Shown: positions 5,949 to 61,980 of the stretch, in pieces
How the letters are laid out: each line of letters starts with the position of its first letter
How positions within the stretch are numbered: position 1 is the first letter of the stretch
NCBI GenBank assembly: GCA_963715185.1
Contig: CAVQRG010000006.1
Span: 232,603-296,602 of the forward strand
Reading direction: 5' to 3'
Length of the DNA stretch: 64,000 nucleotides
Source: an uncultured Planctomycetaceae bacterium
GTDB lineage: Bacteria > Planctomycetota > Planctomycetia > Planctomycetales > Planctomycetaceae
The notes under the pieces: generated by a model
What the model saw: only the letters and a program-made list of their open reading frames with translations
The model's database searches: none
Told to the model about the DNA's origin: nothing
Translations under genes and position numbers: made by a program

Positions 5949-7968
5949 ATGGCCTCGTCTCCAACACATCCTGCCTCGCGCGAACCGGCAACCGTCCGAA
6001 AGCGCCGGGCACAACCGCGCCCGCTGGCCCTCAAGCTGCTGTACACACTGCTGGCCGTGGCGGTGTTCTTTGCGCTGCTCGAGGGTCTGCTGGCGATCTG
6101 CGGCGTCCGCGCATCAGCCGATCGCGCAGATCCGCTCGTCGGTTTCGCCGGGGGTCGCCCCCTGTTCGTCGAAGAGCCGGCTCCCGACGGCACCGTCGAC
6201 CTCGTAACGGCGGAGCCGAAACTCACCTGGTTTAACGCCCAGCGATTTCCGCGAGAGAAACCCCCGCAGACAAAGCGCATCTTCTGCCTCGGGGGATCGA
6301 CGACCTATGGACGCCCGTACGACGATGCCACGTCGTTCTGTGGCTGGCTGAGGGCTTTCCTCCCCGTGGCCGATCCCACACGTCGCTGGGAGGTGATCAA
6401 CGCCGGGGGCATCAGCTACGCGAGCTATCGGGTCGCGCGGCGTGATGGCCGAGCTGGCCGAATACTCGCCCGACCTGTTCATCATCTACTCTGGACACAA
6501 CGAGTTTCTGGAGCAGCGGACCTACACGATGCTGGCCGGGTCGTCCGAGGCGACCCGCCAGACGATCGGCTGGCTGAGTCAACTGCGGACGTTCGCCGCA
6601 CTGCGCTCGGTCGTGCGACCGGACCAGCCCACGCAATCCGCGCCCCCCCGGCAGAACGTGCTGCCCGCCGAGGTAGAGACACTGCTCGACAGTTCGGTTG
6701 GTCTGGATGCCTATCATCGCGACCGCGACTGGGAGCGCGGGGTGGCGGCGGACTACCGGCGACATCTCGAACGCATGCTGGACGTGGCGGAGGCGAGCGG
6801 CGTGCCCGCGATCCTGGTGGTGCCCGCATCTCAACTGCGCGACTGCAGTCCGTTCAAGAGCGAGCATGCCCCCGACCTGACCGAACCAGCGTTAACGGCA
6901 TTTCGCACGGCCTACGAGAGCGCGCTGGCAGCACAACAGCAGGGAGACCTGCCGGACGCCCTCGCGCACGTGGAGGCGGCTTTGGCGATTGATCCGCAGT
7001 ACGCCCATGCCCAGTATCTGCGCGGGACGCTGCTGTGGGAGTTGCAGCGACCGGAGGAGGCGCGAGCCGCCTTCATTCGGGCCCGCGATGAGGACATCTG
7101 TCCGCTGCGTGCGACGACCGGGATGTGTGACATCGTCCGTGAAGTCGCCCGGGCGAGACATGTCCCACTGGTGGACTTTGTCGCGCTCACACAGTCCCTT
7201 GCCGAATCCGGCGTCCCGGGGGCCGACCTGTTTCTCGACCACGTTCATCCGACCATCGAGGGGCATCGCCAGTTGGCGCTGCAACTGGTCGACAAGCTCT
7301 CGAATATCGGCGCCCTCACCCCCAGCCCCAACTGGGACGCAGCAGCCGTCGCACGTGTTACTGCAGAGGTGGAGAGCCGGATTGATCCGGAGGCCCACGC
7401 CCGGGCCCTCCTCAATCTGTCGAAGGTCCTCAGTTGGGCAGGCAAGTATGCGGAGGCAGATCGGCTGGCTCTCCAGGCTGGCGAACTGCTGCAGAGCGAC
7501 GCGGAGGCCCTCTACCAGGCCGCCGGGGCGAAGTACCGTGCAGGGGACCTGCCGGGCGCCCTGCGACTTTTCGAACAGGCGGCTGAGGTCGATCCCACAT
7601 CGGGCCCTGCCCACTACGGTGTCGGGCTGGTGCTGGCCGAAACCGGTCGACTCGACGAGGCACTGTCCGCCTATGCACGGGCAGCGCAACTCAGGCCGCA
7701 ACAACTGGAGATCCGCTTCAACTACGGCAACGCACTGAGTGACGCGGGTGACTTTTCGGACGCCGAACGGGAATATCGTGCCGCCATCCGCATCCAGCCG
7801 GACTTTGCCCCGTCGCACAACGGCCTGGGCATCGCGTTGGTGCAACAAGGCAAACTGCCGGAAGCGATCGCAGCTTTCCAGCGCGGCGTCGCGCTCGATC
7901 CCGGAGATGTCGAGACCCGCTCCAACCTGGCCAGGGCCGAGGCCCTGGCCAGCGAACGATCGCAATAG
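5949..7968 (+). pseudogene. SGNH/GDSL-type hydrolase fused to C-terminal TPR repeats, one frameshift near 6441
   Basis: ORF 5949.. gives ...KRIFCLGGSTTYGRPYDD...VINAGGISYASYRVAR. The sense continues in ORF 6442..7968 as VMAELAEYSPDLFIIYSGHNEFLEQ..., followed by TPRs. One extra nucleotide sits between the two frames. Confidence 0.8.
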
Positions 7969-7990
7969 TCCAGCCGTCCGGGCGGGCGAG

Positions 7991-8407
7991 CTAGTTGCTG
8001 CCCGTGGGCAACTTTGCAGCAAGCGCTTCCATCTGCGCAATCATGCCGCCGATCTCCTTGGCGCTGGCGCTGCCTGCCTTGGCTTGCAGCTCACCGAGAA
8101 GGTCTTCGATCTGTTGCGCGGTCGCCTGATCTTCTTCAGAAAGCTTCGACATGTCCCGGGATGCCGTGTCTTCCGTGATCGTGGTCAGTTCGCCACTCAG
8201 GGCCGATGTTCCCCCCTCGCCGGCGAGTGTTTGCTTGAGCACCGAAATCATCGACCGGTAACCATCGGCCACGCCCACATCAGCCGGGCGATCGAGATTG
8301 AACCGGGATAACTCCTGCTCATCCGCGCTCCCGCATCCCACAATCAGCAGCAGGGACAACAGCCCACAGGTTGTTAATGTACGCATTCTCATGGTGACGG
8401 TTCTCAC
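7991..8407 (-). CDS. small coiled-coil lipoprotein, paralog of 10216..10611
   Basis: 138 aa with lipobox LLLIVGCGS. It shares with the paralog the motifs SALSEE(D/A)QATA(Q/A)QI, LL(G/A)..QAKAG and Q(M/L)..LA..LP. It lies immediately downstream of a DUF1559 gene. Confidence 0.75.
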   Translation of the reverse strand: MRTVTMRMRTLTTCGLLSLLLIVGCGSADEQELSRFNLDRPADVGVADGYRSMISVLKQTLAGEGGTSALSGELTTITEDTASRDMSKLSEEDQATAQQIEDLLGELQAKAGSASAKEIGGMIAQMEALAAKLPTGSN

Positions 8408-8505
8408 GTTCCTGGTCGGCAGAGCTCAACAATGAACGACGCTGGCCCCGGGCTCCGCACGAGACCCCGGGACCATGGCGCCGTTCAGCCAATTCCGGGG
8501 GCAGG

Positions 8506-9605
8506 TCAGAATTCCCCGATCGTTTCATTGCCCTGGATCGTCAGCAGTGCACGATACTGCGGGCGGTCGATGTTCTCGCCGATGAACCGGACGGCCCCGT
8601 CGCAGAGCAACATCTGGACACCACCCTCATGGCGGCTGCGGGCGGCAACGCCCCCCTTGCCATCGTTAGTCTCGTCGAGACAACGAAGGTCCCTGTCGCC
8701 GGCACTTCCACCGCAGAATGCAGGGGAGTCGGCCCACGCCGTGCGATTCCCCGCGTTGTCCTCGGCTGGAGCATTGGGAGTGGCGATCCCGTCCGGGCCA
8801 TCCTCCGGACGCCAGGGCGCACCTCCTTGCCCTCCCGTGTAGGCACTGAAGATCGCGCCGTGGGCGAGTCCCCAGCAACCGCGGCAGTCACCGTTACTCG
8901 TATTCTCGTGCAGGATTTCACCAATGGCGACCGTATTGCTGGTGCCGTCCAGCACGTCGCGAATGCCGGCGCCCCAGCGACGGTTGCCCGTTCCGCGGCT
9001 CCCGAAGACACCGAGGTTCTTCGAGCGGGCCCAGTTTGCGGTGCCATCGATGCCGTTCTGCCCGGTGTTTTCGTTGGCGTACGCCCCACCGTAGTTGGCC
9101 CCGTAGTTTCCGCGCACGTAAACCGAACGCTGGCCATTGCTCTGTGGGGGAGGTTCAGCACCGCCGTTCCCCTGCACGAGCTGCGCTGCAAATCGCTGGG
9201 ACACATGAAGACCGCCAGAATCGCCCCGGTCACCTGCGGCTGATCCCGACTGGCACGATTGGAATCCCACAGATTGTACAGCGGGGCCTGATCTAAGTTG
9301 GGCAACAGCGAGATGGCCCACGTGGTGCTCCAGTCGGAGGCACGAAACTGCGGATCCGTGCCACAGTTGTCGTTCCAGCTCGGGCCGCCGTTGCATGCAG
9401 CCCCCAGCGGGAACTGATTGAAGACGTCGTGGTAGTTGTGCAGCGCCAGGCCGAGTTGCTTGAGGTTGTTCTTGCACTGCGTCCGACGTGCGGCCTCGCG
9501 CGCCTGCTGCACGGCCGGCAGCAGCAGGGCAATCAGGATCGCGATGATCGCAATCACCACCAGCAATTCAATCAGCGTGAATGCACGTCGCGTTAAGTTC
9601 TTCAT
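8506..9605 (-). pseudogene. DUF1559 / H-X9-DG protein with prepilin-type signal, frameshift near 9185-9200
   Basis: ORF 8541..9605 has the N-terminus [17 protein letters not shown]...[16 protein letters not shown] and then loses sense. ORF 8506..9477 carries the conserved C-terminal two thirds (...[25 protein letters not shown]...[24 protein letters not shown]...GEF). That part is collinear with the intact paralog 10757..11875. Confidence 0.85.
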
Positions 9606-50588: not shown

Positions 50589-51113
50589 TTGGCACCCCGA
50601 TCCCTTCAGGAAGCACACGTGAGTCACTCCCACTTGTCCGTTCGTCACTTCCTCAATCAACTCAATGAGTCCGGCGAGCGCACGCAGCCCCGATCACAGA
50701 CCCGACGACTCCCCCCTTGGCTGAACCGCTTCCTGCAGCAGGCGGCCGACCGCTTCGACCCGCAGGAGGACACGGCCCGCGTCGGCTATGTCTGTCGCTG
50801 CGACGATGGGGAGTGGACCCTCGCTCTCTACCTGGGGGAGATCGAGCACGTTGGGGGCCCTGATGATGGGGCGACTTACCTCATGAACTTCGTGTTCGAT
50901 ATCGACGGAATCTGCGGTCTGTTCACTTCTGTCGACCATGTGCGCTGGCACGCCGTCCCACAAGCGCTCGGCCAGCAGGAAAGCGGATCGACCCTCGTCG
51001 TCCATGGATGGGTGAGCTCCCATCCCCTGTGCGTCCAGGTGCATATGTGCCCTCCCAGGTGCGCAGGCCCGGGGATGAAACGCTATCCCAGCGGTCATAT
51101 CGTGCTGATGTGA
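50589..51113 (+). CDS. hypothetical protein
   Basis: 174 aa ORF with coding-like composition (DTARVGYVCRCDDGEWTLALYLGEIEHVGGPDDGATYLMNFVFDIDGI). No family recognised, and the start is uncertain. Confidence 0.4.
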   Translation: MAPRSLQEAHVSHSHLSVRHFLNQLNESGERTQPRSQTRRLPPWLNRFLQQAADRFDPQEDTARVGYVCRCDDGEWTLALYLGEIEHVGGPDDGATYLMNFVFDIDGICGLFTSVDHVRWHAVPQALGQQESGSTLVVHGWVSSHPLCVQVHMCPPRCAGPGMKRYPSGHIVLM

Positions 51114-51269
51114 TGACGCGGAGCCGACGGTGCCCGGCCCGGTCATCGGACGACAGGTCGACCGGCACAGGTGAGGAGATCGCAAGGGTTGTGATATGCT
51201 CAGGCCCTCGCGGCTGTCCTGAAGTCGGGGCAGCCTATCCCTCACACATCTCCGCAACGGGGACACGTC

Positions 51270-55306: not shown

Positions 55307-55675
<369 letters not shown>

Positions 55676-55699
55676 TTTTTCACACCTCACCCTTCCGCT

Positions 55700-56576
55700 C
55701 GCCGCCCTCTGCTGGGTGGCTGGGTTCGGAGCGCAGCGACGCCCCCAGGATCCCGAGCAACCGGGGACTCGTCTGCGGCTCGACTCCAGCCACTCTCTCA
55801 GCATCGGGTAGCACCGGTTGCCCCAACCGGTGCCGCGCAGCGGCAGGAAGCTCTGCATGTCGCACTGCTGCACCTGCCAGACAGGTAGGGCCGACTATCG
55901 CCGTCCCTACAGGGCTGAGTCGGCAGATCACACCTCGTCCGCTCGCGGTCTCATGGCTCACGCCTGGCACCCTCCCGGGCTCTCTCAGCGAGAAGTTCTC
56001 CGCTTTCCGCAGTCGTTAACGGAGCGCCCGACATTGCAGCCAGAGTGTGATCCTGTTTGAATGGTAGCCAGCCCCGTCCTCTGTACCCACGGCGAGGTGC
56101 CGACCATGACAGTCGCCACTCAGCATCGGTGCGCACCACTCGGCCTGTTTCCCGACAGGCCCGAGCCGCGTCTCTACCAGGCTGTTGAAATACAAGCCCG
56201 AAGCGCCAGCGAGGGAATCCTGGAGGACCAATCACCCGCGAATCTGGGCTCCACTCGCTCGCGCGTCGTGCCGGTATCCGATGATTCAACGGGTTGCAAC
56301 GACCGCACCATCGAAGTCCTGCGAGTCCACCATGACCGCCGGCGTACGAAGCAGGCATCGGACCATCGACGCCTGAAGGTGTCCCGCTCTGGACTCTCGG
56401 CACTCGCCCCTCGGCTCTGTGACGACATCCGCACTGTGCAGGAGTTGCTCGGCCACAGCGACGTTCGGACGACGATGATCTATACTCACGTTTTGAACAA
56501 GGGTGGACGCGGTGTCCGCAGCCCGCTGGAGCGGATTCGAGAGTTGCTCGCGCGGAGCGAACGGATAAACGACTGA
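55700..56576 (+). pseudogene. intI: decayed integron-integrase (IntI-type tyrosine recombinase), N-terminally truncated at rnpB, multiple frameshifts
   Basis: The C-terminus [36 protein letters not shown] is a near-canonical IntI end. Upstream, spread over three frames but collinear with the intact IntI at 60979..61980, are W.R., [43 protein letters not shown] (matching LYGSGLRLM), RHSASVR (matching RHTIHVR) and ...LP. Confidence 0.8.
55805..55891 (+). repeat. 87-nt direct repeat copy R1 (inside the decayed intI)
   Basis: CGGGTAGCACCGGTTGCCCCAACCGGTGCCGCGCAGCGGCAGGAAGCTCTGCATGTCGCACTGCTG...GCCAGACAGGTAGGGC. 80 of 87 positions are identical to 59561-59647. Confidence 0.9.
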
Positions 56577-56612
56577 GCGTTATCGAGAAACGTCGTTCCG
56601 GATAACGCTCAG
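56573..56612 (+). terminator. perfect 12-bp hairpin overlapping the stop codon of the decayed intI
   Basis: CTGAGCGTTATC, a 16-nt loop, then GATAACGCTCAG. It could be a terminator or a protein-binding palindrome. Confidence 0.4.
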
Positions 56613-56735
56613 CCGACTCCTCCACGCATTTGCCGCAACGAATGACTTCGATTACACTTACAGCCGCCTGACCGACCTCGGCCATGCGCGGTATCCGCAA
56701 ACGCCCGCGGATTATACAGATCTGCATAAACACTA

Positions 56736-56742
56736 GTTAGCT
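56736..56742 (+). other. candidate attI/first-cassette recombination core GTTAGCT
   Basis: AAACACTA-GTTAGCT-GCC lies 160 nt after the intI stop and 31 nt before the first cassette ATG. It is the same core type as GTTCGCC (57472) and GTTAGCC (58259; minus strand at 60811-60805). Confidence 0.45.
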
Positions 56743-56766
56743 GCCAGGTAACATAGAGGGGCTACC

Positions 56767-57378
56767 ATGCCGGACGACTTTCCCAAATGGGCCTCGCCGG
56801 AAATATGCGATCAACTTCCAGGCATCCGGGAAGCCGGTGAATCGACTAACGTCGACTTCAAAGAGTCATTTCCCGATCAAGCGCATCGGCTTGGCAAGGA
56901 GATTGCTGCGATGGCAACATCCGGTGGCGGGCGCATCTTTATCGGTATCGACGACGACGGCGGTCTTCACGGAGTCGATGCATCAAACGGTGATGAGCGG
57001 GACGACATCGCAGAACGCGCACACAACATCGCCCTGACGGTGAAACCCATTCCAAACGTGAACCTGATGTTTGCCGTCGAGTCCGGCAGGACTGTCCTGG
57101 TCGTTGATGTCCCAAAGCAGTCGGATCCGGTCTACTATTACGATTTCCGCCCGTATGTCCGCGATGAGCGGCGAGCAAGACCGGCAGAGCCCGACGAAGT
57201 CGTTGAGCTGGTATGGGCACATCCAAGCTCCGGACACAAGAAGGAAATGGAACGAATTCTGCAACACCAAATGCAGAACTTCATCGACCACAATCGCGAA
57301 CTCGATAAGATCTCCGCAGACCAAATGCGTGCCTTCAACGAAACAATGAACGCTCCAAGACGCAACATGGGGCGGTAG
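56767..57378 (+). CDS. AlbA_2 (Schlafen-type putative DNA-binding) domain protein; candidate cassette 1
   Basis: 203 aa: GESTNVDFKESFPDQAHRLGKEIAAMATSGGGRIFIGIDDDGGLHGV...VLVVDVPKQSDPVYYYDFRPYVRD, then a short coiled coil. RBS GAGGGG sits 6 nt upstream. GC is visibly lower than in the flanks. Confidence 0.75.
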   Translation: MPDDFPKWASPEICDQLPGIREAGESTNVDFKESFPDQAHRLGKEIAAMATSGGGRIFIGIDDDGGLHGVDASNGDERDDIAERAHNIALTVKPIPNVNLMFAVESGRTVLVVDVPKQSDPVYYYDFRPYVRDERRARPAEPDEVVELVWAHPSSGHKKEMERILQHQMQNFIDHNRELDKISADQMRAFNETMNAPRRNMGR

Positions 57379-57385
57379 CCAACAA

Positions 57386-57478
57386 GCCAGCTAACAACCG
57401 ATTGCAACCGAGCGGCGGGGCGGGGCGTTCCTGAAGTCAACGGTTCTTCGCCGCCGCCGGGTTACCTTGAGCGTTCGC
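57386..57478 (+). other. candidate attC site A (imperfect palindrome)
   Basis: AGCTAAC (57389-95) pairs with GTTCGCC (57472-78). The inner stem is GCGGCGG (57412-18) with CCGCCGC (57451-57). The central loop TTCCTGAAGTCAACGG is shared with site B. Confidence 0.5.
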
Positions 57479-57637
57479 CACCTCAGGCGGCAAACGTTGC
57501 GGATGAGCCGTGAGGGTCACCCGCAATGCGACGGTGGGTTCCCCCACCACAGAGCCCGGGACGCCGGCGCCACCCGGCGTCGTGCCGGGGGCTCATCCGA
57601 AACGTTATCTCACGACATCCAGAGGACATTTCCACCA

Positions 57638-58168
57638 ATGGCTGATGTGACGATCCGAGAGCTCGCATCTGACTTGGAGATTGATCGCAGCCAGCTGCGC
57701 AAATGGGTCATCAAGCAACTGCCCGAAGTTTCGATCCACAAGATTCGTGATCCGAATGGTAGTGGTCTCGAAGTGATGGCCGTGTCATCTGGCGAGGCAG
57801 ACAAGATTCGCGAAGCTCGTACGAACTGGGACGGAAGCCGCGTTGCCAGAAGTGGTACTGATCAAACGCAGTTCGGCGTCTTCTATGCCATTCAATTGCT
57901 GCCGGAAATCTATCCGACCCGCATTAAGTTTGGGTATGCGACGGACGTAGAAGATCGCCTGATGACACACCGCTGTACGTGCCCAAATGCCGTCGTCCTA
58001 AGAACGTGGCGCTGCGATCCCAAATGGGAGCAGACGGCACTTGCTGCGGTTCGGAATCTCGACGAATCCGTTCTTGTCGGCGGCGAGGTGTACGACTGCA
58101 CGTCATTCGATCTCGTCGCTGAGCGACTCGATTCATTTTTCTTAATGCTTACCCCAACTGAAGAATAG
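57638..58168 (+). CDS. T5orf172/MUG113 (GIY-YIG-like) domain protein with N-terminal HTH-like segment; candidate cassette 2
   Basis: ATG 57638 gives MADVTIRELASDLEIDRSQLRKWVIKQL...FGVFYAIQLLPEIYPTRIKFGYATDVEDRLMTHRCTCPNAVVLRTWRCDPKWEQTALAAV...VGGEVYDC. Confidence 0.7.
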   Translation: MADVTIRELASDLEIDRSQLRKWVIKQLPEVSIHKIRDPNGSGLEVMAVSSGEADKIREARTNWDGSRVARSGTDQTQFGVFYAIQLLPEIYPTRIKFGYATDVEDRLMTHRCTCPNAVVLRTWRCDPKWEQTALAAVRNLDESVLVGGEVYDCTSFDLVAERLDSFFLMLTPTEE

Positions 58169-58177
58169 ACCGTGGCA

Positions 58178-58265
58178 TTGCAAACCGTTCCACACGGAGC
58201 CGCGGGCCGCGCGGGTTCTGAAATCAACGTCGTTCGCCGCGGCCCGGTGAACGGTGACGTTAGCC
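58178..58265 (+). other. candidate attC site B (imperfect palindrome)
   Basis: TGCAAAC (58178-84) pairs with GTTAGCC (58259-65). Further stems are ACCGTTC (58184-90) with GAACGGT (58249-55), and CGGGCCGCG (58203-11) with CGCGGCCCG (58238-46). The loop is GTTCTGAAATCAACG. Confidence 0.5.
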
Positions 58266-58295
58266 ACCAATGGTCTGAAGCGTTCGGATGAGTTC

Positions 58296-59456
58296 ATGCT
58301 TACGAAGCCGGCGGCGTCCAATGTGGTCGAGGTCATCTGCCAGGGTTCCCCCAAGGAGATGGGCTTGGCTCAAGGCGCGGGCGTACAGAACAAGATACAT
58401 GCTGCACGCCAAGTTCTTACCAAGCTGGAGGCGTTTCGCCTACAGCAGCCTTGGTGGCTACCCTATCGTGTCTACCGCTGGCTAGCCGAATACAAGGCGT
58501 CGCGGTTTCTTGCGCACTGCGACAACCCGGAAATGAGCCAACGCTTGGCAGGCATCGCAGAGGGAGCCGGCGTCAGTCTCAAGGCCATCTGTCTCTTTAA
58601 TGCCTTGGAGCCGCTCCTGTCGTCCGTGGGCGGTTGCACTGCGTGTCCTGGGGCGTGCTCGGCGGTTGCAGTGCGGGGCCGGCGCTCGGCGCACGGGAGA
58701 ACCCATCGTCGCCCGTAACTTTGATTACCTGCCACTGGTCCAGCCCTTCTACCTTGTGCGGGAGAGCCGATCACAAGGCAAGTTGCGGGCGTTCGAATTT
58801 ACGACCGCTCCTTTGGCCGGTGCCGTCGACGGCATGAATGAAGAAGGGTTGTGTATCACGTACAATTATGGCTTCACTACGGACGAGCCATCTGCCCCCG
58901 CTGCCCCGATCTCGATGGCCATTTCCGAGGCCCTGGGGCGCTGCGGAACCGTCGCTGAGGCGGCTGACTGGATTACCTCAAGGCCGCGCTGGGGTGGCGG
59001 GTTGCTCATGCTTTGCGATGCGAGCGGCGACATGGCCTCCCTGGAGTTATCGAGTACACGAAGCTATCTGCGCCGACCAGCCTCGGATGAAGATGTGCTG
59101 TTCCACACCAATGCGTTCTCCAGCGCCCCATGCGCGAAGTCCAGGTGCCGTGGAACGCGCTTTACACGAATTATGCTCCCACTGCCTTGCGTGGGCGGAG
59201 GCTCCATCAGTCATCGGAGTTACGAGACCGACGGTTCAAACAACTTCTGGCCGAGGTTGACGTTCTCGACGGCAGTCGGCTGGGGGCCATCATGGCTGAT
59301 CACGGCTCAGATGGCACCCCAAGTGATGACACGCCCTGCGTTCACGGTTCGTACTGGTATACAACAGCCTGTTTACAGTTTTTTCCAAAAGAGCGGCGGA
59401 TGCGCGTTGCCTACAACACTGCTTGCCGCGCGAATTTCGAAGATGTGGTTTTGTAG
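58296..59456 (+). pseudogene. peptidase C45 / acyl-CoA:6-APA acyltransferase family protein, two frameshifts; candidate cassette 3
   Basis: MLTKPAASNVVEVICQGSPKEMGLAQG...LLSSVGGCTA (Ntn nucleophile G-C-T), then GEPIVARNFDYLPLVQPFYLV...AVDGMNEEGLCITYNY...LMLCDASGDMASLELS, then MREVQVPWNALYTNY...CVHGSYWYTTACLQFFPKERRMRVAYNTACRANFEDVVL. Breaks are near 58690 and 59128 (a C4 run). Confidence 0.75.
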
Positions 59457-59560
59457 CCGCATCGCCCAGGGCTTAACGCAGGCGTCTATCTCGCTGGCAG
59501 ATGCGCCAGCGGCTAACCATCGCATCCACCGGAGCGACGGTGGCCAGCCGATTTTCAAAC

Positions 59561-59647
59561 CGGGTAGCACCGGTTGCCTCAACCGGTGCCGCGCAGCGGC
59601 AGGAAGCTCTGTATGTCGCACTGCTGGCCAAGCCAGACAGGTCGGGC
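59561..59647 (+). repeat. 87-nt direct repeat copy R2 (displaced fragment of the intI N-terminal region)
   Basis: 80 of 87 positions are identical to 55805-55891. Weaker similarity extends about 40 nt upstream and about 100 nt downstream. Confidence 0.85.
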
Positions 59648-59900
59648 TTTGCCTGACGACACGCATCGCCCTGACGACGTCTGGTTCAACGTCCGATGCG
59701 GGTAAGGAATCGGCTGACGCCCGTGCATGGCACCTTCACGCCGGGTCGTCATGCGGAGCATGACCAACGTCACATCCGCCTTCCGTCCTCAACTCCTTAC
59801 TCCCAGCGTGTCCCCACAGGTTGACTTCACCACACAGTCACGGAGACACTGGGGCGAATTCTCCTCCGTGCTGTCTGCAACCCTGCCAGGTGCTTCCCCG

Positions 59901-60340
59901 ATGCGAATCCCCGTTCTCTCCGCCTTTGTCATCAGTCTGCTTCCACTCTCGGCACCCGCCGATGACACCACGTACGACGTCGTCATCTACGGAGGCACGT
60001 CGGCCGGGGTGATCGCCGCCGTCCAGTCGACCCACATGGGGAAGTCCGTCGTCATCGTGGCCCCGGAAACTCACCTCGGCGGGTTGACTGCGGGGGGCTG
60101 GGCTGGACCGACAGCGGCCGCAAGGAAGTGATCGGCGGACTGTCGCGCGAGTTCTACCAGCGTCTCAAGGTGCATTACGATCAACCTGCCGCCTGGCGAC
60201 AGCAGCAGCCCGCAGAGTATCGCCTGTATCGACCCGATGACGACGCCATGTGGGTCTTCGAGCCCCATGTGGCCGAACAGACCTACGACGCCTGGATCGC
60301 GGAGCTGCAGATCCCGGTCGTCCGCGACGCCTGGCTCGAT
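59901..60340 (+). pseudogene. FAD-dependent oxidoreductase (PF12831-like), N-terminal fragment only, one frameshift near 60097
   Basis: [66 protein letters not shown], then [29 protein letters not shown]...WVFEPHVAEQTYDAWIAELQIPVV. The break is at a G6 run where G7 restores the frame. Family similarity is lost after about 60340. Confidence 0.7.
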
Positions 60341-60383
60341 ACCCGCACCGCGAGGGCCTTGTACCTCAATGCTGTGACGAGGG

Positions 60384-60426
60384 GGCCAACAACCTCTTCG
60401 CGACAGCAGCAATTCCTTGTTAGACC
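60384..60426 (-). other. candidate short attC-like palindrome ending the minus-strand cassette
   Basis: On the minus strand: GGTCTAACAAGG ...22 nt... GGTTGTTGGCC. The stems are GGTC/GGCC and AACAA/TTGTT with one bulged T. GTCTAAC fits RYYYAAC, and GTTGGCC is of the GTTRGCC type. At 43 nt it is shorter than typical attC sites. Confidence 0.35.
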
Positions 60427-60804
60427 GCGGACAGGTTGCGGGCGGTCCCCGACAAACCCATCGCCCGTGAACTCTGCGAGGTCCAGTTTGAGCAGCCCCG
60501 AAACCCCGCCCGGCGACTCGGGGACCGCCCGTTCAGGCGCTCGGAGGACGCCCTTCCCTTGATCGGGACAGCGGACGCCGTGCTCTTGGATGACGGTTGG
60601 CGAGGCGTGCCCGATCTGGGATCGCGCGGACGGAGAAGCGCCGCACCTAGCCGATGCGAGCCAGCCTGGGCGCCCTCGTGAGGTTCGCGGCGCCGCGTAC
60701 TGAGCGAAGCCCCAGTTCAACGCTTTTCAAAGCAGTTGTGGAGTCCAGAGTCACGAACCGAGCGAGGATCTCTGTCGTGGCGAGCGAGGCAGGGACGACC
60801 CACG

Positions 60805-60811
60805 GGCTAAC
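60805..60811 (-). other. candidate attI recombination core GTTAGCC (minus strand)
   Basis: The minus strand reads GAATCAGA-GTTAGCC-CGTG, 168 nt after the stop of the intact intI. This is the same geometry as 56736 in the decayed locus. Confidence 0.4.
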
Positions 60812-60978
60812 TCTGATTCAACTGACCCACGCCGCACTATCGCGCGCCGCGGGGCCGTCCATGTATTCACTCCCCAGGGACGCGGGGCAACTGCCCTCTG
60901 CGGACGGACGATGGCGCCATTTTGGTGTCGCCCCCACCCTGGCTGCGTACGCGGGTCCGCATAACCTCCCCGGCCATC

Positions 60979-61980
60979 CTACAGCCGATCCAGCGGGCTC
61001 CTGACCCCGGCGGGCCCGTTCATCAGCACGTGGGTATAGAGCATGGTTGTCTTGAGGTCCCGGTGCCCGAGGAGCTGCTGGACGGTCCGAACGTCCACTC
61101 CGTCCTCCAATAGATGGGTGGCGAACGAGTGCCGGAACGTGTGGCAGGTGGCATGCTTGGCGAGGCCGGCGCGACGCACGGCTTCCTTCACCGCCCGCTG
61201 AAGGATCGAGGGGTCGCAGTGATGCCGGCCCTGACGGCCGGTCCTGGGGTCCCGCCATCGGCTCCGCTGTGGAAAGACCCACTGCCACCCCCACTCCGTC
61301 ACGGCTTGGGGATACTTCCGCGCCAGGGCTTCGGGTAGGTCGACCCGCCCGTGCCCTTCGGCCAGGTCCTCCCTATGCGTCTCCTTCACCACGGCCAGGT
61401 GGTGCTTCAGCGCTTCATCCAGACTCTGCGGCAACATGGTGGCTCGGTCCTTGGCGCCCTTGCCGTCCCGCACGTGGATGGTGTGGCGTCCGAAGTCCAC
61501 GCTCTGGACCCGCAGCCGCAGGCACTCCATGAGCCGCAGTCCGGATCCATACATGAGCCGCGCCATGAGTTGCGTGTCGCCGTCCATGTGCTGGATCACG
61601 TCCCGGACCTCCCGGCGCGTCATCACCACCGGGATCCTCTCCGGCATCCTGGCCCGCGCGACCCCGTCCAGGTCGCCGAGGGAACGCCCCAGGACGTGCC
61701 GGTACAGGAACAACAGGGCGCTGAGGGCCTGGTTCTGCGTCGAGGCGCTCACCCCCTGGTCCACGGCAAGGTGCGAGAGGAACGCCCCGACCTCCTCCGC
61801 CCCCATTTCGTCGGGGTGACGAAGACCGTGGAACCGCACGAACCGGCGCGTCCACAGCACATACGCCTTCTCCGTCCTGACGCTGTAGTGGCGCGACCGC
61901 AGTGTGGCCCGGAGTCGCTCCAGTAGTTTCGGTGCGGGGGCCATGTCCCGGAGATCGCGCCTCGGGGTGGGCGCATCCAT
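60979..61980 (-). CDS. intI: integron integrase (IntI-type tyrosine recombinase), intact
   Basis: 333 aa: [64 protein letters not shown]...[17 protein letters not shown]...[15 protein letters not shown]. It carries the IntI-specific insertion [40 protein letters not shown]. The end is [52 protein letters not shown]. Confidence 0.92.

Follow-up and report, generated by a model that had tools for sequence, protein, structure and literature searches.

Two GC-rich elements, each lying just past the stop codon of a small gene, raise the question of whether the genome of an uncultured Planctomycetaceae bacterium holds an integron array, and whether the sites of such an array can still be used. The elements, named A and B, are found in a 64,000-nucleotide (nt) stretch of contig CAVQRG010000006.1 (assembly GCA_963715185.1), and this whole stretch is referred to here as the window. 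A first-pass annotation made from the letters alone had proposed A and B as attC sites, the recombination sites that close integron cassettes. The present analysis arrives at the same answer: A and B are very probably attC sites that close cassettes 1 and 2 in a small integron on the chromosome, as judged from the integrase context, a covariance model built from an independent array, the structure of the sites, and the footprints at cassette junctions.

The bottom strand of an attC site folds into a hairpin made up of the R box, an unpaired spacer, an L box that carries extrahelical bases, and a loop that is variable. The integron integrase, IntI, reads the shape of the attC site and not its sequence, and it acts between the G and the TT of the R' motif, where strands are cut and exchanged. 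A crossover at G|TT leaves each cassette starting with TTNNNN, which complements the cassette's own R''. This TTNNNN/R'' signature is present in the window.

Elements A and B and their attC family

Element A occupies 57389..57479 on the + strand and is 91 nt long, with R'' AGCTAAC, R' GTTCGCC, and the crossover at 57473|57474. Its inner parts are the spacer AACCG, L'' ATTGCAACCGAGCGGCGG, a loop with CTGAAGTCAACG, L' CCGCCGCCGGGTTAC, and the spacer CTTGAGC. Element B, which is also 91 nt long and on the + strand, occupies 58175..58265 and comprises a degenerate R'' GCATTGC, the spacer AAACC, L'' GTTC[C]AC[A]CGG[A]GCCGCGG, a loop with CTGAAATCAACG, L' CCGCGGCCCGGTGAAC, the spacer GGTGAC, and R' GTTAGCC with the crossover at 58259|58260. 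A begins 11 nt 3' of the stop of the first open reading frame (ORF1) and B begins 7 nt 3' of the stop of ORF2, and both ORFs are on the + strand.

The central loop and the end motif which the first-pass annotation had noticed in both elements are indeed present. The loop reads CCTGAAGTCAACG in A (57430-57442) and TCTGAAATCAACG in B (58218-58229), with CTGAARTCAACG in common, and the ends GAGCGTTCGCCACC and GTGACGTTAGCCACC have CGTTMGCCACC in common. Its observation that the stems are built from different sequences also holds, with GCGGCGG/CCGCCGC located at 57412-18/57451-57 in A, and CGGGCCGCG/CGCGGCCCG at 58203-11/58238-46, together with ACCGTTC/GAACGGT, in B. The limits that it had drawn around the two elements stand only in part: the motifs are there, the homology is longer, and the true 5' limits are 57389 for A and 58175 for B. 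The local alignment of A with B scores 64, compared to 15.7±2.3 (maximum 32) for 2000 shuffles, and the homology, which starts in the R''-L'' spacer (57396/58183) and ends at CGGATGAG (57507/58292), is collinear throughout. A third copy was sought in all 140-nt windows on both strands of the 64 kb, and none scored above 29 outside the A/B overlaps.

Other members of this family are carried by L055, a stretch of 9.4 kb from an IMG/VR contig of 47 kb, which was recovered by scanning viral contigs for the loop and R' motifs. The cassette array of L055 (355-6733, - strand) contains 11 attCs between unrelated small ORFs. These sites are 89-98 nt long and have the form xxxxAAC-5 nt-GTTxxACC…(stem, loop)…GxxAAC-6 nt-GTTxxxx. 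They fall into two sub-families, the B-like V sites and the W sites, which read GTGTAACAATGCGTTCAACCGAAGCGGGG…. V2 is 92% identical to B over 85 nt, V3 is 85% identical to it, and the attCs are all that L055 and the window have in common by blastn. The R' of the family reads GTTMNNC (GTTACAC, GTTATGC, GTTCTGC, GTTCGCC, GTTAGCC, and others). The suggestion that the GTTMGCC core of A and B is a lineage-specific flavour of attC is borne out by this family motif, and taxon-specific attC families are documented (PMC8352920).

Scoring with an attC covariance model had been put forward as a check in the first-pass annotation. For this, the model R2 was built from 8 sites of the independent L055 array only, with the R-box and L-box pairs, and was run unfiltered on both strands of the window, which makes 128 kb. 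It gave exactly two significant matches, both on the + strand, namely B (58170-58270, 68.6 bits, E 4e-17) and A (57384-57484, 36.6 bits, E 5.6e-8). The next best match, at 51097-51164 on the + strand, reached 11.3 bits (E 0.92), and the - strand opposite A (57384-57484) reached 10.9 bits (E 1.2). With 27.9 bits, R2 also detects an attC that neighbours an intact intI (L003:11898-11996).

A second covariance model, R1, was built from 14 attCs in arrays beside intact relatives of the IntI that neighbours A and B. It picks up 8 further attCs in those arrays on which it was not trained (20-84 bits), and its ten best matches in L055 are all L055 attCs, on one strand. In addition, position weight matrices (PWMs) for the 5' end and the 3' end were derived from 22 attCs of R1-type arrays, which are unrelated to A and B, and applied to 128,000 positions on both strands of the window. 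The 5'-end matrix ranks a half-site on the minus strand (60413-27) first and the R'' end of A (57387-57401) second out of 128,000, and the 3'-end matrix ranks the R' end of B (58254-65) second out of 128,000. The 5' arm of A is identical at 22 of 26 positions to attC L038:11860-11963.

The junctions between cassettes carry a separate signal. In L055, 10 out of 10 junctions have an R'' that matches the reverse complement of the R' before it at 7 of 7 positions, which is the trace left when cassettes are inserted by crossover at G|TT. Two junctions of the window show the same complementarity. The attI-like GTTAGCT (56736..56742, + strand) pairs at 7/7 with the R'' of A, AGCTAAC (57389-95), and the R' of B, GTTAGCC (58259-65), pairs at 7/7 with GGCTAAC (59511-17), which is the R'' of a third, degenerate attC named C. 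The chance of both 7/7 junctions is ~(1/256)^2.

The first-pass annotation had further claimed that the stems of A and B are compensatory, which is not demonstrable from two sequences and is shown here with ten family members. A, B, and eight L055 sites were aligned in the canonical attC architecture for pair counting. The L-box/stem helix has 16 pairs, in which 96% of the cells are paired, and both-sided (double compensatory) changes are found in 10 of these 16 pairs, such as C-G↔A-T (columns 22/90) and G-C↔C-G (columns 32/82). As a control, the 3' partners were slid by 1-3 columns, and pairing fell to 32-47%. Of the 10 sequences, 9-10 show the AAC/GTT pairing of the R box. All three unpaired columns (21, 25, and 29) fall on the R''-L'' (5', top-strand) arm, the extrahelical bases being C, A, and A in B, and A11 plus G/C in A, and the bulges have the same polarity as those of the L003, L042, and L055 attCs folded as bottom strands. 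The spacing taken to define an attC was 5 nt between R'' and L'', 6 to 8 nt between L' and R', and a total of 57-141 nt; A has spacers of 5 and 7 nt and B has spacers of 5 and 6 nt, each within 91 nt.

Several results weigh against the assignment of A and B to attC. R1 gives A only 5.3 bits, with R''=GCTAAC and R'=GTTCGCC aligned, and its best match in the B region, at 2.8 bits, does not correspond to B. An exact-motif scan of a genome contig collection (CTGAARTCAACG…CGTTMGCCAC) and a three-block motif scan of a metagenome contig collection gave chance matches in coding DNA only, and no intI is seen in the 9.4 kb of L055. The homology between A and B extends for another ~35 nt beyond the GTT crossover, which a simple cassette model does not predict. 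The junction from A to B fails with 2/7 positions, as GGCGAAC is expected and GCATTGC is found; the R'' of B is without AAC, and R' and R'' of B do not pair as they do in an attC. Bottom-strand DNA folding, another check that had been proposed, gives a z of +0.77 for A, which is no better than shuffles, and a weak -0.8 to -1.6 for B. Even though the folding energy is thus not significant, the undoubted L055 members of the family also reach a z of only -0.8 to -2.5, and the folding z is therefore uninformative for this GC-rich family. The other part of the folding check came out in favour of attC, with R/L-box spacing and R''-L''-arm bulges that match bona fide attCs and with the support of the covariation.

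Two integron platforms in the window

A link to integrase genes, which had also been suggested as a check, is found on both sides of the elements: an intact IntI is located 2.7 kb to the right, and an intI remnant with the attI-like site 0.8 kb to the left. The left integron would run in the order rnpB, truncated intI (+), attI-like site, cassette 1, A, (a hairpin named A2), cassette 2, B, cassette 3, and C, and its array would face a second, intact platform with intI and attI on the minus strand. The segment at 56-60 kb has a G+C content of 58-60%, compared to ~64% elsewhere. The host is assigned to the Planctomycetaceae by an RsgA protein that the window encodes. The gene rnpB, for bacterial RNase P RNA class A (55307-55679, 288.6 bits), lies directly left of the decayed integron, and Rfam at a permissive threshold found nothing in 55680-61000. 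The intI remnant (56424..56576, + strand) consists of the last ~38-50 codons, matches TIGR02249 at positions 277-315 of 315 (E 8e-18), and reads towards the cassettes. In a tblastn search with the full IntI, it covers aa 296-333 at 68% identity, and no match was found further upstream of it. The attI-like GTTAGCT lies ~160 nt past the stop of the remnant and aligns with the ...GAATCAGAG|TTAG attI crossover of intact relatives. It is taken as attI from this conservation among the relatives together with the junction rule. A scan for the cassette promoter (Pc) gave no sigma-70-like promoter, and such a scan may not suit Planctomycetes.

Cassette 1 (56737-57473, + strand) carries a 203-aa ORF (56767..57378, + strand) for a Schlafen AlbA_2 protein (Pfam PF04326, E 3.6e-18). 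Cassette 2 (57474-58259, + strand) carries a 176-aa orphan ORF (57638..58168, + strand), for which Pfam, NCBIfam, PADLOC, and PHROG return no family match; the PADLOC and PHROGs searches were uninformative for the cassette proteins. Only two homologues of the cassette 2 ORF are on record, one with 90% identity on a 736-bp contig and one with 57% identity in a phage structural module. The distant homologue (L043 10001-10540) is a lone gene in opposite orientation on a phage-like contig, where it separates the portal/terminase module from the structural one and shows no attC-like flanks. Its setting suggests that ORF2 is a phage accessory ('moron'-type) gene that was also captured as an integron cassette.

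Cassette 3 (58260-~59556, + strand) carries a gene of the C45 acyltransferase/hydrolase family (58295..59500, + strand, 3' limit approximate), in which the match to NF040521 is split over two frames. A 32-bp tandem duplication (58629-48, 58661-80) splits the gene near the predicted autoproteolytic GC(T) site, and the frameshifted gene is either a pseudogene or the product of a sequencing or assembly error. The attC C (59511..59556, + strand) starts with R'' GGCTAAC, the spacer CATCG, and L'' CATCCACCGGAGCG..., and its 5' half resembles V4 of L055. It is internally shortened, its R' is replaced by GATTTTC, and R2 gives it only 8.2 bits.

Hairpin A2 (57489..57610, + strand) lies between A and ORF2 in the leader of cassette 2, with DNA folding z of -4.4 and -5.2. 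It is a 114-nt branched hairpin (57493-57606) with 17-nt arms AACGTTGCGGATGAGCC and GGCTCATCCGAAACGTT (57493-57509/57590-57606), and it is flanked by GGCAAAC (57489-95) on the 5' side and GTTATCT on the 3' side. At this junction from A to A2, GGCAAAC is the reverse complement of the R' of A at 6 of 7 positions. The A-B homology past the crossover extends into the left arm of A2, and only that arm recurs after B (58279-58292). A2 is not recognised by R1, R2, or Rfam, and a scan of viral contigs for its arm gave one chance match. It is possibly an ORF-less cassette, or a second type of attC or other site.

On the right platform, the full-length IntI (60979..61980, - strand) has 333 aa and matches TIGR02249 at 469.6 bits (cutoff 265) over positions 1-315 of 315. 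It contains PF13495 and PF00589 as well as, by TIGR02249, the integron-type additional domain, whereas the left copy is a C-terminal stub only. An exact-match lookup of the intact protein returned no record. The attI crossover of this integron, GTTAGCC, is located at 60805..60811 on the - strand in the motif GTTGAATCAGAG|TTAGCC. From there, a 383-nt segment leads to the 5' half of a canonical attC (60385..60427, - strand, GTCTAACAAGGAATTGCTGCTGTCGCG...), the 3' half of which is missing. This half attC is the one ranked first by the 5'-end PWM; it scores 11.7 bits with R1 and is near-identical to the 5' halves of the L042 attCs. A gene for a flavin adenine dinucleotide (FAD)-dependent oxidoreductase with a signal peptide (59901-60430) is frameshifted near 60125 and cut off near 60380. 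The truncated oxidoreductase gene meets the half attC on the opposite strand, both being cut at ~60380-60430, and this place is a rearrangement scar at which two integron arrays collide head-on.

Relatives of this IntI with 68-90% identity were compared together with their flanks. A Metallophos_2 gene is located upstream in the same orientation in L001, L014, L015, and L017, as in the window. The order Metallophos_2, intI, attI, cassette is common to relatives with 72-90% identity. The attI of the relatives lies ~170-260 nt downstream of the intI stop, and the attI region is conserved (- strand of the window at 60790-60978; L001, L003, L013, L015-L017) in the order TTACRYGGAYCCGGATAAG right after the stop, GAATACATG, ~35-40 nt, and GAATCAGAG|TTAG. 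Co-oriented arrays of small genes follow intI where the contig continues, in L003, L016, L038, and L042. The attC families used by this IntI clade, which are those of R1, differ from the A/B family. Among the attCs of L003, L005, and L016 (e.g., L003:12734-12849 and L016:9062-9180), a common central loop TCGGCTTGCACCTC is closed by stems that differ (GGCCGC/GCGGCC, GGTTGT/ACAACC), which is the same pattern of conserved loop and covarying stem as in A and B. In L055, one cassette encodes an ankyrin-repeat protein, and a lambda-type portal gene (7753-9231) lies beside the array.

State of the array and rival explanations

The loss of AAC in B can be followed in the alignment with V3, which requires no indels: V3 reads GCATAAC AATGG GTTGCACACGGAGCC… and B reads GCATTGC AAACC GTTCCACACGGAGCC…, and the R'' of B is therefore mutated from AAC to TGC. 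The change leaves one broken and one wobble pair beside the cleavage position. As read from this alignment, B is an attC by descent with a damaged R box. Other parses of B, one with R''=TGCAAAC and a 1-nt spacer and one with a 9-nt deletion, give way to this indel-free alignment. A keeps its R box, AGCTAAC…GTTCGCC, with R'' and R' pairing as in an attC, and a 10-bp inner stem; 4 of the 6 pairs of its outer L box are broken (GTT→ATT; GGGTTAC for GxGAAC), and its 3' spacer is 7 nt long. Because of the intI stub, the damage to the R'' of B and to the outer L box of A, the deletion in attC C, and the frameshifted cassette 3, the left array looks like a decaying relic. The present-day activity of A and B is doubtful in view of the AAC loss in B and the outer L-box decay in A. 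Were a site still open to recombination, the candidate would be A, with the intact IntI, 3.5 kb away, acting on it in trans.

Among the other explanations, the one that survives best takes A and B as fully functional attCs in use by IntI 60979-61980, with the left array as an active satellite, similar to the attC site clusters that have no integron-integrase (CALINs), that feeds the right-hand attI. A full-length IntI lies within 4 kb, A retains an intact AAC/GTT R box and the 10-bp inner stem, IntI tolerates diverse attCs, and integrase-less cassettes may mobilise in trans (PMC4889954). However, B has TGC for AAC in R'', with the broken and the wobble pair right at the cleavage site, 4 of 6 outer L-box pairs of A are gone, attC C carries an internal deletion, and cassette 3 has a frameshift. 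Moreover, the R1-type attC families of the IntI clade are not those of A and B. Full function is thus unlikely, and a relic array with attC sites by descent remains the preferred reading.

Another proposal concerns the integron as a whole. A direct repeat of 87 nt with 92% identity (55805-55891 and 59561-59647) brackets the entire left integron (3.76 kb), copy 1 lying 125 nt past rnpB and copy 2 lying 5 nt past attC C. The repeat contains the hairpin GCACCGGTTGCCYCAACCGGTGC, and no further copies were found in the window and none in viral contigs. These repeats could mark the insertion or duplication of the whole module. It is improbable that the entire platform was inserted, or can be excised, as a unit via the 87-nt repeats. 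Along similar lines, A2, which follows A and, in truncated form, B, could represent a further class of recombination site that has gone unrecognised and accompanies each attC. If the platform did move as a unit, exchange at the 87-nt repeats would give a sedentary integron mobility without a transposon or plasmid.

It is highly improbable that A and B are composites of one and a half attCs, in which an inner attC ending in GTTCTTC (57443) or GTTCGCC (58232) was fused to the 3' half of another by cassette deletion. In that case, what the first-pass annotation called the loop would be the 3' end of an attC. The CTGAAGTCAACG-GTTC loop does resemble the 3' end CTGAAGCCAAC-GTTCGG of attC L038:11860-11963, and the inner GTTCGCC of B, ACGTCGTTCGCC, ranks 15 out of 128,000 with the 3'-end PWM. 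However, L055 members hold the same motif within a single collinear attC of 90-91 nt whose outer R''/R' show the junction complementarity at 7/7, and the covarying helix spans the inner site. A parse with an inner attC of 61 nt was rejected: shuffles fold better than it does (z +0.7 to +1.4), and each family member is a single, collinear site.

Least credible of all is that A and B are instead generic palindromic repeats, such as repetitive extragenic palindromes (REP), bacterial interspersed mosaic elements (BIME), or factor-independent terminators, which lie near integrases by chance: they share with these the GC-rich hairpins just past stop codons, their z-scores are unremarkable, and 64 kb of genome were inspected, but the search for more copies or REP-like spread, as had been proposed at the outset, found two copies in 64 kb, both inside the integron, a terminator scan shows no T tract, and REP/BIME elements and terminators are without the junction complementarity (7/7 at two window junctions, 10/10 in L055), the strand-specific bulges, the AAC/GTT boxes with their AAC-5 nt-GTT...AAC-6 nt-GTT spacing, and the integrase link, with cross-recognition of attCs beside intact intI genes, that are seen here.

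Relation to known integrons and significance

A and B are ordinary members of the well-known integron attC system. Their closest counterparts are the sites of sedentary chromosomal integrons, such as the VCRs (Vibrio cholerae repeats) of Vibrio and those of the Planctomycetes model (PMC8352920). Like these, they have an R''/L''/L'/R' hairpin, bulges on one arm, a variable loop, sequence likeness within the lineage, a promoterless ORF at whose 3' end they lie, and the G|TT crossover. In contrast to these, the A/B family has R' GTTMNNC and not GTTRRRY as well as the conserved loop CTGAARTCAAC, and the window copies are partly degenerate, with the R'' of B without AAC and the outer L box of A weak. 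Covariance models for taxon-specific attCs are available, and Planctomycetes are among the taxa covered (Ghaly et al. 2021, PMC8352920). In general, attCs from one integron resemble each other more closely than they do those of other integrons (PMC4889954).

The layout of the locus resembles that of the inverted integrons of Treponema denticola and of the inverted IntI sub-clade in the soil/freshwater clade (PMC3607928, PMC8352920). In the Treponema-type organisation, intI is transcribed towards attI (PMC3607928), and both the left stub with the A/B array and the intact IntI with its attI are alike in this respect. The inverted layout is also found in the relatives L003, L016, L038, and L042. 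The locus differs from inverted integrons in that two platforms face each other within 6 kb, one of which is reduced to an intI stub, and the right platform keeps at most one cassette-like segment and half an attC. The left array can also be compared to a CALIN beside an intI pseudogene (PMC4889954), as it has at least 2 co-oriented attCs and its own integrase pseudogene; of 279 CALINs, 15 had an intI pseudogene nearby (Cury et al. 2016, PMC4889954). In contrast to a CALIN, it has an intact intI within 4 kb, and the clustering of IntegronFinder could merge all of it into one 'complete integron', even though the A/B attCs are on the strand opposite to the array of the intact integrase.

The understanding of integrons is unchanged by this locus, and its relevance lies in the annotation of integrons in environmental genomes. 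The attC models of a foreign family, and presumably general ones, can miss sites such as A and B, whereas a lineage-specific model finds them cleanly. To the sparse record of Planctomycetaceae, the locus adds an attC family with the loop CTGAARTCAAC and R' GTTMNNC, together with an example of integron decay.

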